DNA from: Escherichia phage C6
Strand: one strand, 5' to 3'
DNA: 64,000 bases
Sequence record: MW679410.1
Every line of letters begins with the position of its first letter. Within the stretch, counting starts at the first letter, position 1. A program made the position numbers and the translations under genes. The notes under the pieces are model-generated. The model saw only the letters and a list, made by a program, of their open reading frames with translations. It did no database searches and had not been told where the DNA came from. Positions 38 through 45,510 of the stretch are shown one piece after another.

Positions 38-736
38 TTAGAACGAGTGGCTTGAGCCTGCTTCCATAGCCAATACATAAGAAGCTTGTGAACCTTCAAA
101 CTTGGCTGCGAAACGAGCATCTTGACCTTCACCACGAGCCCATAGCAATACATGGTAATCGGCTGGCATCATTTTCATATTGGTTTTGTTGATAATGAAT
201 TTGAATTCAGGGCCATCATGGTCTGCAACCACTAAGGAATACAATGGACGCGCCAGGTCCTTATCATCAACTTGTTTGTAACCATTGATTACAATTTTAC
301 CATTGTCTACAGTGATTGCAAATGTATCAATACTCAGTCCAGAGGACACACGCATCAACTGTTGGTAATCTTCAGCTTTAAGGTCAAAAATAACTTCAGC
401 CACTGGGAACGGAATAGCTTTGCTTGGGAATGCAATTGTGCTTGGGTCGGCAATAGGCCACTTAATAGTTGAACGTTGGTCTTTAATAATTAAAGTGGTT
501 TGGTCTTCACTTACCGAAACTTCAGCACTATCGGATACCAATGACAGAATACTTAAGAAGCCGTTCAAATCATAAATTGCGGCTTCGATATCAAAGGTGT
601 CATTTACAGTAGCTTCACCATAACTTGCACCCGTTACTGAACGAGTTAGAATAGTGTTACCAGGTTTAAGCATGATACCTGGGTTAATACCGGAGAAGTT
701 TTTCAGAATGTTCAGAGTTTCTTTAGAGAATTTCAT
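38..736 (-). CDS. 45: DNA polymerase sliding clamp gp45
   Basis: 232 aa; N-terminus and length match recalled T4 gp45 (MK.SK.T..LKNF..INSGIML); synteny with rpbA/46/47. Confidence 0.95.
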   Translation of the reverse strand: MKFSKETLNILKNFSGINPGIMLKPGNTILTRSVTGASYGEATVNDTFDIEAAIYDLNGFLSILSLVSDSAEVSVSEDQTTLIIKDQRSTIKWPIADPSTIAFPSKAIPFPVAEVIFDLKAEDYQQLMRVSSGLSIDTFAITVDNGKIVINGYKQVDDKDLARPLYSLVVADHDGPEFKFIINKTNMKMMPADYHVLLWARGEGQDARFAAKFEGSQASYVLAMEAGSSHSF

Positions 737-3106: not shown

Positions 3107-3327
3107 GTATTGTTCTCACGAATTGTTTGTTCAGCATATTCTAGCATTTCTTCGGAAGAAGCAAACACGTCGTCAAGTTCCATGGCCCATGAAACACCTT
3201 CAGAATATTCAGAAGTGACATACATAGTTCCGGTATACCAAGAACCATCCACGTCCCATTCTACATTACCGAACCAGCCATCGCCAATATGAAAATCATG
3301 TTTATACATTTTCATCATTATAAGCAT
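3103..3327 (-). CDS. Hypothetical protein (46.1-like)
   Basis: 74 aa; ATG start; 4-nt overlap with neighbours. Confidence 0.5.
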   Translation of the reverse strand: MLIMMKMYKHDFHIGDGWFGNVEWDVDGSWYTGTMYVTSEYSEGVSWAMELDDVFASSEEMLEYAEQTIRENNT

Positions 3328-3565
3328 CCTTGATGCATGATTCAGCCATATGAATTAATGTTTCTGGAGTATCATCTACCATTACATTAAAGCTAAATTC
3401 CACAGCCCAATCAGTAGCAACATAAACTTTAATAAGCTCGTTGGTATCGCGAGTGCTCACGGCTTCAAACCAGAACTTAATTGTATTAGGTTGTCCGTCG
3501 TCATCAATAACGATACAGTCGTGTTCTAGTTCAAGTCCTGATTTTTTGAATTCATCTAAAGTCAT
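3302..3565 (-). CDS. Hypothetical protein (46.2-like)
   Basis: 87 aa; ATG start; translationally coupled to gene 47. Confidence 0.5.
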   Translation of the reverse strand: MTLDEFKKSGLELEHDCIVIDDDGQPNTIKFWFEAVSTRDTNELIKVYVATDWAVEFSFNVMVDDTPETLIHMAESCIKDAYNDENV

Positions 3566-41503: not shown

Positions 41504-41511
<8 letters not shown>

Positions 41512-42265
41512 TTTTATTTCCTAATAATTTATCAATAGTAGTGTATAGTTCAGAAAGAGTGCCGTTATTTTCAACAACAACGTCACCAGGTAAAATTGGT
41601 AGACCCGCTTCAGTGATGTGCGAGTCTTGTACTTGACCGGTTTCAGAGCGAACCACATGAATAATCGTAGCACCCATCGCTCTGAGCGAATCAATTTCGT
41701 GTGTTTGACGAACATCAGGTACGACATAGTATTTCGCATCAGAGTATATTTTATCAAAATAGTCTAAAGCGAACAACTTAACCCAATACATCTTATCAAA
41801 TTGGTTAACAATAATATCAGTCCCAAGGGTCTGCATGAGACGACGTACTGACCAATTGTTATTTTTATTTATTACTTCAAACAGTTGGTCTTTTGTTTCT
41901 TCAGACAGATACTGGACTGGGGTAAGACCATAATGATATGCGGTACGAACATCCATTCCTGGAATAGGAAGGATATTATTCAGTTTGACAATAGCATTTT
42001 CAAAGATATCAATCACATCATATGGTTTTAAAGGAAGGATTTCTTCACGGTCGTAACCTATACCTTCAAAACAGTTAAAATCGAGTTTAGGCATATAACT
42101 ACGGTCGAATACAGGGTCATCAGAGATGTATTCATAAGCTTCAGCCAGATACTTTTTAATAGGACCTGCGAGCTGAAATTTTACCGAATCCATATTTTCG
42201 ATTACATAGTTAGCAACGGTATCCTTACCGCTACGTTTGATTCCTACAATTGATATTAGTTTCAT
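41504..42265 (-). CDS. 1: Deoxynucleoside monophosphate kinase, gene 1
   Basis: 253 aa; P-loop GIKRSGKDT; blocks matching recalled T4 gp1 (WSVRRLMQ.LGTD.IVN.FD.MYWVKLFALDY, ATIIHVVR). Confidence 0.9.
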
Positions 42266-42855
42266 TATTTTCTCATAGATGGATGCATAGACATACGAGC
42301 CACTCGTTGTTCGGCATACGAATCAATTTGTGGACGACCTGTAACTATTGTACCATCTATTTCTACAGCAAACGATTTGAAGTTGAATGTTGCTGTGGCA
42401 ATTATCGCTGGGTCAGAATCCTCTTTATAAGAGTACTGGATTTCCGAGAGGTCGGATGGCCAACCACCGTAGTAATGAATGCTCATTACTATTTTCTGTT
42501 TGTTGTTATCAAGGATGTGGAGGGTGATAGCTTCTGGTTGACCTTTAGGATGCCAGGCTTCTGAATCATGGGTTACGTAGTTGTTTAATGACAACATCCA
42601 CTTATAAACGTCAAGCCATGATTTCAATTCACGGTCTACAAGAAAGTTCACAATCAATGGGTCGAATTCTACAGTAGAACCTGGAAGCTTAGCACGATGT
42701 ATACCCTGGGTCGATCCTGGGACGTCTGAGATCGGAATATGGATACCAGGTAGTGTTACATCTTGCACGTTCAATTTGAATGCCTGCGTCATTCCTGCAT
42801 CACTAACCTCTAAGATAAAGTTGGTGGTGTTAGTTTGGTTAAATAAACCGTTCAT
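42265..42855 (-). CDS. 3: Tail completion / sheath stabiliser gp3
   Basis: Position between gene 1 and gene 2; size near T4 gp3; start may be the internal Met. Confidence 0.7.
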   Translation of the reverse strand: MNGLFNQTNTTNFILEVSDAGMTQAFKLNVQDVTLPGIHIPISDVPGSTQGIHRAKLPGSTVEFDPLIVNFLVDRELKSWLDVYKWMLSLNNYVTHDSEAWHPKGQPEAITLHILDNNKQKIVMSIHYYGGWPSDLSEIQYSYKEDSDPAIIATATFNFKSFAVEIDGTIVTGRPQIDSYAEQRVARMSMHPSMRK

Positions 42856-43603
42856 AGGATTCCTATATTGCTTAAGTCCCAGACAGTGTATAATGGTCCT
42901 AGGTCTGTTCCATTCAATAACTGGCTGGGATAATAGATTATTTTATAAATTCACGTAGTCTTACTGGTGTCATAAAAGGCCATTTGGCTATAGTTGGTTT
43001 TATCCAGTATCTTTCGTGACATGTAGCTTTAAATGCCCGAACCATATCTTTGGCCTCTTCTATAGTATCCACACCAAATTGTTCACAAGTTTCCTTTCTG
43101 GCTTTATCCCATCTCCTTTTAGAAAGCTCTGATTGGAGTTCTTTATTGGCAAAATGGCCATTATTCCTATTATGAGTGGTTCCTTTTGTAGGACTCCATC
43201 CTCGTCCCTTTACAAATCCTTCAGGAATCGGTTCACCCGGAAACAGCTTAATACACTTCTTGCCATTATTATAATAAACCTTTCCTGTTTGGGTTGCCGT
43301 GATATTCTCAGAGTGCTTACGTTTAAGCCAGCCGTAAAGCTTATTATAACGACGAGGGCCTTGAGTCATTGTCATAGCTGCAAAAGTTAGACCAGGATGT
43401 CCTGGATGCATTTTAACTAATAGTTGATGTGCTAAATAATGTTCTTCAGGAGTTAAATCAACTAAGTTTGTAGATTCATCACCTCCACCCATACATCTAG
43501 GTAAAATATGATGAGATTCGGTATAACAGGATAGTGCTCGTCCTTGAGCACGTGTAATTAATGAAGAATATATTTTCTGGTAATTCATTATGCATTCTTC
43601 CAA
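42856..43603 (-). mobile_element. Free-standing HNH homing-endonuclease insertion between genes 3 and 2
   Basis: Genes 3 and 2 are adjacent in T4 as I recall; here an HNH ORF lies between them. Confidence 0.55.
42938..43588 (-). CDS. HNH homing endonuclease
   Basis: Start trimmed to MNYQKIY (ATG overlaps gene 2 stop); HNH motif HHILPRCMGGGDESTNLVDLTPEEHYLAH. Confidence 0.75.
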   Translation of the reverse strand: MNYQKIYSSLITRAQGRALSCYTESHHILPRCMGGGDESTNLVDLTPEEHYLAHQLLVKMHPGHPGLTFAAMTMTQGPRRYNKLYGWLKRKHSENITATQTGKVYYNNGKKCIKLFPGEPIPEGFVKGRGWSPTKGTTHNRNNGHFANKELQSELSKRRWDKARKETCEQFGVDTIEEAKDMVRAFKATCHERYWIKPTIAKWPFMTPVRLREFIK

Positions 43604-44415
43604 ACTTTCTGAGCTGAGTAACGCTTGCCTTTCGATACAAATTGCTGAAGTGGTAATCCTATTACATTAGCCCAATCAGCAGGTTTTATCTCTACTAAAG
43701 GTCCTTTAATATTTCCAGGGATATAAGCCTTAATCATCACGTCGGCTCCAGCGAATCCTTTTACCTTACTCCAATCGATTTTTAATTTAGTCGAGTTCGT
43801 AATGGTAGGCGTACTCGCGTATTGCTTCAGCAATTCTTCCAGAAATTGTTGGCGTGCTTTAGGCGGGATATAGTGTAAGTTCAGCCCGTACATTAAATTA
43901 TGCTTACCTAACCCAAGATAAATGATTAAAGGATATTTGTCCCAGTATGGTAGGGTATCCTTATGTTTGGCATCATAGATATAAGCATAAAGCTTACCGG
44001 GAGATGGTTTAGATACCTGGTGTCCACGAATTCCTTTCTTTAATGTTTCTGTAAACCATTTAGCTGATTTATTGTTTACAGCGGCGCCTTCGTTAGCAAT
44101 CTTATCACGAATACTCTTTCTAAAACTATTCACCAAAATTAATTGGCGTTCGGCTTTGGTTAATTTATTGCCAGGTTTATTCTGAAGTTTTTCAACCTGT
44201 ACAGCAGTTTTAATTCGACTCGAATATCGAGACATCGCAGATGTAAAGCTAGAATATTTAATGCCTTTATCTTCAGCGAATTTCTTAGCCGAGACACCTT
44301 TAGCCTTAGCTTTAGCGTATTCAACACCTAAAGCTATCCATTGTTGTTCTGAACGGGTAGGCTTGGAACCCTTTGTGGTTTCAGTAGCCTCATTGATGTA
44401 GGAAAATATACTCAT
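43588..44415 (-). CDS. 2: DNA end protector gp2
   Basis: Start trimmed to MSIFSYI (275 aa); position between 3 and 4. Confidence 0.8.
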
Positions 44416-44861
44416 CCTTTCCATCCTAATTTTTTCAGTGAATGTTCGGTAATCAATCTAAAGGTGATACCCATTTTATCTGCTGTAGCTTTAGCTGCTT
44501 TCCACTTATCAGTATTAACAGACCAAGTATAATGTTCGTTGATATATCTCTTTTTAGCAGCTGTAGTCATTTTAACAGGCACCGCAGGAGCATGGGTTTC
44601 TTTAAAAGGTTTGACTTCAAAAAAGAATTGTTGGCCTGTATCAAATTTAACCCAGAAGTCCATAAAATATCGTCTTTTCTTTCCTTCGGCATTGCAAAAG
44701 TATGGGATAACCACCTCTTCTGAATTCCACTGGACTACATTAGGATGGTTGTCAAGCCAACGCATAAACCATGCTTCCCAAGAGGAACGATATTGGATTT
44801 TCTTCCAATCACCTTTATATTTTTGTAAGTTTGTAGGTTTAAATTTCCCTGAGTAAGCCAT
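44412..44861 (-). CDS. 4: Head completion protein gp4
   Basis: 149 aa (T4 gp4 about 150 aa); divergent to gene 53. Confidence 0.8.
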
Positions 44862-44872
44862 AGTTGCCTCCT

Positions 44873-44880
44873 TATAAATA
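44873..44880 (+). promoter_or_regulatory. T4 late promoter TATAAATA for gene 53
   Basis: Exact TATAAATA 28 nt upstream of ATG 44908. Confidence 0.7.
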
Positions 44881-44887
44881 TTAATAT

Positions 44888-44895
44888 TATTTATA
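44888..44895 (-). promoter_or_regulatory. T4 late promoter TATAAATA for genes 4-2-3 (divergent)
   Basis: Plus-strand TATTTATA, i.e. TATAAATA on minus, upstream of gene 4 start at 44861. Confidence 0.6.
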
Positions 44896-44907
44896 CTCGG
44901 AGGCCCT

Positions 44908-45510
44908 ATGCTCTTCTCATTTTTCGATCCTATCGATTACGAATCAAAAACAGTCAAGCCGGATTCGGGCTCATTAACAAATGCCGATGTACTGAGCGTG
45001 CCGATGACTGATATATTTAGAAATTATAAAGAATATTTTGATAAAGTGGCTAAAAATTATACACTAAAGACTTATTATATCAACGGGGCTCCTCGTCCAG
45101 AAGAATTGGCCAATCAACTTTATGGCAACGTCCAATTATATTGGGTTTTATTGATGTGCAATAATATATATGACCCCTATTACGGCTGGATTACAGGTCA
45201 AGAAGTTGCATATCAAGCGGCAATCCAAAGATATTCTACTGCAGGTGGTAATCAAGTTCTTTATCACGTTAATGAAAAGGGTGAGAAATTCTGGAATCTT
45301 GTTAATACTCCAGAAAACCCGTATACTTGGTATGATAAAGGCGATACAGAAAAACGTTATCCTCAATATGAGGGCCCTTTGGCCGCAGTAGATATTTACG
45401 AGGATGCTATTCGTAAAAATGAATATAAGCGCGAAATAAAGATTGTAGACCCTAATGATATTGAGTCCTTTATTTCTGCCCTTATTCGCGAAATGGAGAA
45501 AGCCCTCTAA
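44908..45510 (+). CDS. 53: Baseplate wedge protein gp53
   Basis: 200 aa; position before gene 5; late promoter. Confidence 0.85.
   Translation: MLFSFFDPIDYESKTVKPDSGSLTNADVLSVPMTDIFRNYKEYFDKVAKNYTLKTYYINGAPRPEELANQLYGNVQLYWVLLMCNNIYDPYYGWITGQEVAYQAAIQRYSTAGGNQVLYHVNEKGEKFWNLVNTPENPYTWYDKGDTEKRYPQYEGPLAAVDIYEDAIRKNEYKREIKIVDPNDIESFISALIREMEKAL

Follow-up and report, generated by a model that had tools for sequence, protein, structure and literature searches.

Between genes 2 and 3 of Escherichia phage C6, a free-standing gene probably encodes a functional homing endonuclease of the T4 Mob (HNH) type, belonging to a lineage specific for the gene 2/gene 3 junction. The conclusion draws on the 64,000 nucleotides of record MW679410.1 analysed here (hereafter the window) and on their comparison with related phages. 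The gene itself is already annotated in relatives and is an ordinary, expected feature of T4-like genomes. New here are a comparative prediction of its target, inside gene 2, and a set of natural alleles that appear to be of sensitive type, resistant type and resistant-empty type. We found no account in the literature of an endonuclease at the gene 2/3 junction.

The endonuclease gene, its neighbours and its expression

The open reading frame listing gives a minus-strand frame at 42938..43603, 221 aa long if counted from a TTG at 43603. We took the ATG at 43588 as the start because M1, Y3 and Y7 of the product that begins there (MNYQKIY...) are at least 90% conserved in 119 homologs; the TTG start was dropped, and the gene is 42938-43588 (-), 216 aa plus stop. 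It is not a chance frame: a search of the protein database returned 1479 homologs of the product, and PHROG 655 ('homing endonuclease') recognises it at 2e-55. The first-pass annotation of this DNA had described a 216-aa HNH frame between gp3 and gp2, with an ATG sharing one base with the gene 2 stop, and had given genes 3 and 2 as adjacent in T4. These statements hold. The listing and the sequence contain the frame, residues 26-54 read HHILPRCMGGGDESTNLVDLTPEEHYLAH, identical to the motif that it quoted, the gp2 stop TAA (43590-43588) and the endonuclease ATG (43588-43586) overlap as TAATG, and the two genes are separated in T4 by a 106-nt spacer with no open reading frame between them. Its assignment to the homing endonucleases is upheld by the tblastn matches to Mob genes given below, and its description as a free-standing element by a separate intergenic frame that lies in neither an intron nor an intein. 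The span that it gave, 42856-43603, also includes the 82-nt gp2-gp3 spacer and 15 nt of gp2.

The neighbouring genes gp3, gp2 and gp4 (Table 1) were named from the annotation of phages 93-97% identical to the window, and among precomputed matches the Pfam model Phage_T4_gp2 matches the gp2 neighbours of orthologous loci. Genes gp53 and gp5 are on the plus strand, divergent from the gp1-gp3-endonuclease-gp2-gp4 genes. The endonuclease gene has 37.9% GC, compared with 38.5% for gp2 and 39.3% for the window, and base composition gives no foreign-DNA signal relative to either. A search for paralogs of the endonuclease within the window found none. Residues 39-139 of gp4 match Pfam PF08722, a TnsA-like endonuclease N-terminal domain (E 2e-23), and this match is also recorded for gp4 orthologs at other loci.

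Table 1. Features of the gene 2/gene 3 region of the window and of the endonuclease (positions in nucleotides of the window unless residues are given).
Feature	Position	Strand	Basis or content
gp1, dNMP kinase	41504-42265	-	Pfam DNMK 3e-90
Gene 3 (tail completion/sheath stabiliser), downstream neighbour	42265..42855	-	annotation of relatives
Native 82-nt gp2-gp3 spacer	42856..42937	-	intact 3' of insertion
Mob-type HNH endonuclease gene, free-standing	42938..43588	-	ORF listing, PHROG, tblastn, alignment, AF2 model
HNH nuclease domain	residues 1-~100		H26 H27 N41 H50 H54
beta-hairpin motif	residues ~103-130		VYYNNG...IPEGFVKGRG
Helical C-terminal domain, presumed DNA-binding	residues ~145-216		
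TAATG stop/start overlap	43586..43590	-	sequence; arrangement in orthologs elsewhere
Gene 2 (DNA end protector), upstream neighbour, presumed target gene	43588..44415	-	
Predicted target/immunity tract, 3' end of gene 2	43631..43668	-	carrier/non-carrier substitution cluster
gp4 (head completion)	44412-44861	-	annotation of relatives

From the stop/start overlap and a late-promoter box, TATAAATA, at 44888-44895 (-) upstream of gp4, we infer that the gene is expressed within an operon and coupled in translation to gp2. This box is the nearest that could drive a gp4-gp2-endonuclease(-gp3) transcript, and it is a pattern match of which the window holds 8, with 7.6 expected by chance. The gp2-gp3 spacer and the sequence immediately ahead of the endonuclease frame contain no TATAAATA box. 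A weak SD-like GGAAG lies 8 nt upstream of the ATG, and in other genera, too, the orthologous frames adjoin or overlap the stop of gp2. A second TATAAATA box, at 44873-44880 (+), points toward gp53 and stands back-to-back with the first in the gp4/gp53 intergenic region. Inside the frame, at 43392-43405 (-) (codons ~62-66), there is a terminator-like hairpin, CCAGGACATCCTGG followed by TCTAACTTTT, which recalls the internal terminator limiting mobE transcripts in T4. By our reading of the alignment this hairpin is kept with a wobble pair in phage dhabil and is not kept in Kosakonia phage 305; four terminator-like sites were found, with 2.4 expected by chance, and the hairpin may be a chance one.

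The spacer downstream of the endonuclease gene contains TCTATTATC, a stable hairpin and an invariant CCATTATAC motif. It is almost invariant in all Dhakaviruses and ~95% identical in Kanagawavirus, where the coding flanks are ~75% identical. Many T4-like genera keep TAA-TCTAT(T/C)ATC in this spacer, a hairpin that is stable across genera (z -1.3 to -3.9) with a stem sequence that differs between them, and an invariant (A/C)CCATTATA(A/C) motif ~30-45 nt before the gp3 start (compared in L016, L018, L020, L021, L024, L030, L035, L038, L040, L041, L045, L046, L056 and the T4 locus, L006). Rfam had no match in 42000-45200, and RNAalifold on the gp2-gp3 spacers of 11 phages, which aligned poorly, returned no consensus structure. 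The spacer might pair a hairpin that acts as terminator or stabiliser with a processing site or a non-canonical promoter.

Protein family and orthologs

By every feature testable here, the endonuclease belongs to the T4 Mob family. Besides PHROG 655, three more PHROG families, named as homing or HNH endonucleases, match its N-terminus, and tblastn against phage genomes returned 1063 records. Specifically, residues 1-94 are 45.5% identical to T4 mobE (J03968; E 1e-19) and 50% identical to LZ7 mobE (E 2e-18), both of which sit between nrdA and nrdB, and residues 1-142 are 36.8% identical to the T4 region adjoining topoisomerase gene 39 (mobA; E 1e-13). The same search matched the N-terminal ~95 residues to many T4-like 'Mob' genes at 45-60% identity. 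Alignment of the 119 homologs showed conservation of the catalytic His, the structural Asn and the metal-ligand His of the HNH motif; G35, N41, E49 and H54 are invariant, and H26, H27 and H50 are at least 90% conserved. The AF2 model has a pLDDT of 91 over the whole protein and 94 over residues 1-105, and a strand at 24-27, a strand at 42-45 and a helix at 47-60 form the beta-beta-alpha arrangement in the AF2 models.

The HH...N...H...H beta-beta-alpha-metal motif is shared with I-HmuI, I-TevIII and McrA, and neither sequence nor fold matches them significantly (E >0.3). The HNH motif aligns with that of McrA over residues 21-54, but the endonuclease is without the CxxC zinc-binding pairs of McrA (TPEEH here, CPNCH in McrA), and unlike I-HmuI and I-TevIII it is not intron-encoded. 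Foldseek with the full-length model against the PDB returned nothing at E <=0.001, McrA being a weak match, and the PDB sequence search gave nothing significant, its McrA and maturase matches being limited to the HNH motif. The default Pfam search was empty, and at E up to 10 no Pfam HNH model matched the endonuclease. Matches that were set aside are a Pfam NrS-1 helix-bundle hit (E up to 10), which is unrelated and spurious, an NCBIfam IscB hit at E 0.06, which falls far below the cutoff of that model, and chance matches to Alphavirus E2 in the PDB sequence search.

In the literature, all Mob proteins are described as combining a common N-terminal HNH domain with lineage-specific C-termini. 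The endonuclease likewise joins a family-conserved N-terminus, homologous to the HNH domains of T4 MobE and MobA, to a locus-specific C-terminus; like the T4 mob genes, its gene is free-standing between conserved genes and appears dependent on upstream transcription. It is none of mobA-E. The insertion site is gene 2/gene 3 rather than nrdA/nrdB or 60.1/39, within a late structural-gene cluster, the presumed target is gene 2, and its C-terminal domain bears no relation to theirs. Experiments show both MobA and MobE to be homing endonucleases that nick target DNA and gain over-inheritance in crosses (PMC2988022, PMC2790892). Of the five Mob enzymes in T4, MobE alone is given as active, and MobA is known through a personal communication (PMC2988022).

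Coverage of the C-terminus is restricted to ~25 of the best 120 of the 1479 homologs. All full-length orthologs whose context was examined (47-80% identity) directly follow gp2. These include the orthologs of Kosakonia phage 305 (Kanagawavirus; 80% aa identity), e11/2 (Tequatrovirus; 62%), P479 and L048 (Gaprivervirus; 62-63%) and Serratia SP1 (Muldoonvirus; 51%), and those of Serratia phage 4S and two metagenome contig types. Gene gp3 was seen downstream in the Kanagawavirus, Tequatrovirus, Gaprivervirus, Muldoonvirus and Serratia phage 4S orthologs, and the two metagenome contig types end right after the endonuclease, the downstream side lying outside them. P0026, a homolog in the N-terminal part only, sits in an unrelated context. 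The C-terminal half appears to go with the locus, which is the modular pattern expected if, as we presume, the C-terminus sets target specificity.

Annotated orthologs occupying this junction, with 51-98% full-length identity, are QL01 YP_009202879, dhabil_208, Kosakonia phage 305 YP_010650126, e11/2 e112_157, P479 QWQ55982 and Serratia SP1 UNA02522. Their labels in relatives (QL01, E33, dhabil and others) are 'homing endonuclease' or 'putative site-specific intron-like DNA endonuclease'. The window copy differs from its Dhakavirus orthologs by 1.2-2.0% (QL01-like group) and 8% (dhabil). In the record of Salmonella phage SHP1 (L065, KY979109), which is 62.8 kb and not a full genome, product names seem to be out of register by one or two genes, with 'site-specific intron-like DNA endonuclease' standing on gp1 and gp3 and 'head completion protein' on gp2, and the endonuclease CDS is annotated as 432 nt only, although the 216-aa frame is intact.

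Carriers, empty sites and selection

Megablast of positions 42200-44500 against the phage collection placed the window in Dhakavirus (JS98-like T4 relatives), with best matches to SHP1, 04086, QL01, E33, ABTNLS3 and LQ5 at 96.7-97.4% identity. The whole query was matched by 10 records, comprising seven Dhakaviruses (QL01 twice) and Kosakonia phage 305 (twice), which makes eight Dhakavirus carriers when the window is counted. Approximately 43 records at >=90% identity match in two pieces that cover 72% of the query, and in these the endonuclease frame is therefore absent. Overall, the gene is missing from ~85% of Dhakavirus records and from T4. Carriers and non-carriers also coexist at the same site in Kanagawavirus, Gaprivervirus and Tequatrovirus.

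The first-pass annotation had left the junctions to a comparison with T4-like genomes lacking the insertion, and had named presence in all close relatives, T4 included, as an observation that would speak against a mobile element. T4 and most Dhakaviruses have an empty site, and the junctions are clean. Alignment with JS98 and IME08 defines a cassette of 647-650 nt between the last sense codon of gp2 and TAA-TCTATTATC, around which gp2, the spacer and gp3 are intact and collinear with empty-site relatives. In a Kanagawavirus-like contig without the endonuclease (L019, ~3300-3345), three tandem copies of the gp2 stop/junction motif, TCTTAATC TTCTTAATC TTCTTAATC TATTATCC, stand precisely where the empty insertion site lies; this could be a slippage product or the footprint of a past insertion or loss. 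Metagenome contigs L076, L077 and L078 (orthologs P0025, P0017) stop 25-75 nt past the stop of the endonuclease frame, as would be expected if the populations are cassette-polymorphic and the assembly graph branches there.

Among carriers with diverged backgrounds and the IGL-type tract described below (window, SHP1, 04086, QL01 group), the endonuclease gene differs by 0.8-2.0% and gp2/gp3 by 3.3-5.0%, that is, 2-6 times less in the endonuclease gene than in its flanks (Fisher p 0.03 to 3e-7). In the comparison of the window with QL01, the endonuclease gene has a dS of 0.037, gp2 one of 0.185 and gp3 one of 0.148. Flank haplotypes do not track carrier status among Dhakaviruses; over the first 400 nt of gp2, the closest relative of the window is the non-carrier IME08, with 6 differences, compared with 19-20 for the carriers QL01 and E33. 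Given this low divergence and the flank haplotypes that do not follow status, the cassette is younger than its background and unlinked from it, a pattern expected of a gene spreading horizontally among co-infecting relatives, and the gene is probably mobile. Between genera, the endonuclease gene is as diverged as its flanks, with dS saturated. Recent transfer between genera was rejected on these grounds, and the association of the endonuclease with the gene 2/3 junction appears to be old.

The endonuclease gene is under purifying selection. dN/dS ranges from 0.07 (window vs. dhabil or Kosakonia phage 305) to 0.22 (window vs. QL01), and in either half of the gene dN lies far below dS in all comparisons that gave an estimate of the two. 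Once fixed, homing endonuclease genes often decay, and T4's own I-TevIII is defunct (PMC2790892), yet a decaying, inactive relic of a past invasion is a highly improbable description of this frame, which keeps its 216 aa in 8/8 Dhakavirus copies, is intact in the orthologs of other genera and combines these low dN/dS values with conserved catalytic residues. We also consider it improbable, if less so, that the protein is a domesticated or repurposed Mob-like nuclease that is kept for the benefit of the phage, for example in excluding the markers of co-infecting relatives or in attacking parasite or host DNA, and that no longer homes selfishly. Such a role would agree with the strong purifying selection and with divergence that parallels host genes across five genera, suggesting long co-residence, and relatives of phage homing endonuclease genes with roles of this kind are the subject of two articles (PMC10448857, PMC13096335). 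The absence of the gene from most Dhakavirus records and from T4, however, marks it as dispensable, its younger age relative to the flanks among carriers is a signature of horizontal spread, and benefit to the phage and homing are not mutually exclusive.

A candidate target tract in gene 2

Each carrier was compared with its closest available non-carrier in seven pairs spanning four genera (window/IME08, window/JS98, dhabil/JS98, Kosakonia phage 305/L016, P479/L021, L048/L022 and e112/T4). Within pairs the ~1500 nt of flanks are 95-100% identical, save for a cluster of differences 35-85 nt upstream of the insertion point. Differences per nt amount to 0.18-0.29 at -85..-35 and 0.018-0.052 elsewhere (Fisher p 5e-4 to 7e-11); the interval had been set by inspecting the Dhakavirus pair, and the cluster reappeared there in three other genera. 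In the window the tract reads AAT GTA ATA GGA TTA CCA CTT CAG CAA TTT GTA TCG AA. It carries amino-acid changes within an otherwise conserved part of gp2. Non-carriers have VM(L/M) and carriers IGL or TLL in Dhakavirus; the corresponding alleles are VMM and TLM in Kanagawavirus, VML...FM and VLL...FF in Gaprivervirus, and QQFV (T4) and QSFY (e112) in Tequatrovirus. Among Dhakaviruses, alleles other than VM(L/M) occur in 8/8 carriers and VM(L/M) in 10/12 non-carriers, counts that are not independent, the carriers being partly related by descent.

This pattern resembles the one that polymorphism logos of carriers and non-carriers display for MobE around its mapped nick site in nrdB, where status-linked polymorphisms likewise lie in a neighbouring essential gene (cf. 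Figure 8 of PMC2790892). We consider the tract, inside gene 2, a likely target or immunity tract of the endonuclease. Two phages, vB_EcoM_005 (L010) and LHE83 (L071), have no endonuclease gene and yet combine the carrier-type IGL tract with an empty-type junction (…KNS*). They are candidates for natural resistant empty sites, for products of incomplete co-conversion, or for loss of the endonuclease gene. Alleles of this kind are expected if the break falls in the tract and repair stops before the cassette, at least 40 nt away.

Homing would then run as follows. Late transcription of the endonuclease gene together with gp4 and gp2 would be followed by weak translation, coupled to the gp2 stop at TAATG. 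In a mixed infection with an empty-site relative, the C-terminal domain would bind gene 2 near its 3' terminus while the N-terminal HNH domain would nick or cut ~40-80 nt upstream of the insertion point, after which recombinational repair from the carrier genome would copy in the 650-nt cassette and the adjacent resistant gene 2 tract. The carrier genome would itself be protected by the tract substitutions (VML to IGL or TLL codons). The mode of expression, a nick as opposed to a double-strand cut, the exact target and homing itself are steps that we infer.

A different site is conceivable for an active enzyme, though we judge it unlikely. As with intron-encoded enzymes, recognition might span the insertion point (the end of gp2 plus TAA-TCTATTATC), so that the cassette splits the site and makes carriers immune, and the upstream cluster would then be either donor sequence that hitch-hiked or a part of gene 2 that is hypervariable in general. 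The junction and the 82-nt spacer would make a good target, being extremely conserved even between genera with ~75% identity in their coding flanks. Part of the tract signal is indeed general hypervariability, since pairs of non-carriers also vary there at 2.1 times the flank rate, and the differing positions change from genus to genus; those between T4 and e112 lie downstream of those in Dhakavirus, and there is no single common 'immunity' position. Against a site at the junction, the tract differs at 5.4 times the flank rate in carrier/non-carrier pairs, compared with the 2.1 times among non-carriers. Divergence is also not continuous outward from the cassette, the last 33 nt of gp2 and the spacer having almost no status-linked differences. 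In addition, characterised free-standing T4 enzymes such as MobE cut away from their own genes (PMC2790892), and the two empty sites with a carrier-type tract are more easily explained by a distant cut. We therefore retain the tract as the presumed target.

Endonuclease genes also occur at neighbouring junctions of other phages. GIY-YIG (Seg-like) frames of 214-247 aa lie between gp4 and gp2 in L031, L039 and L041, and Mob-like HNH frames lie just upstream of gp4, toward gp53, in L020, L024, L027 and L055 (129 aa and truncated in L020). P479 (L009, 33-680) has two endonuclease genes, one on each side of gp2. Endonuclease genes seem to have landed repeatedly in the gp53-gp4-gp2-gp3 block. These genes, together with the mosaic flanks, may point to a recombination hotspot at the gene 2/3 region, as the first-pass annotation had put forward.

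Taken jointly, the observations may describe an old pair of homing endonuclease and target that has co-diverged at one junction across at least five T4-like genera and has diversified gp2, in a block that serves as a landing pad for multiple endonucleases. We offer this broader reading tentatively and with less than even confidence. The gene would spread among close relatives only, cutting 40-80 nt inside the essential gene 2. Repair that stops short of the cassette would repeatedly yield resistant empty alleles, such as those of vB_EcoM_005 and LHE83, and would also make the gp2 patch hypervariable, amino-acid changes included.

Dhakaviruses are often proposed for phage therapy, and the gene accounts for a presence/absence difference between otherwise near-identical members of the genus. 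For the Mob family, it adds a lineage whose insertion site is defined and for which gene 2 holds a concrete predicted target. A sixth Mob lineage for which sensitive-type, resistant-type and resistant-empty alleles are on record would be convenient for studying the route from nick to homing and the escape of targets. If the old-pair reading is true, a virion protein is visibly being diversified, at the protein level, by a selfish nuclease.
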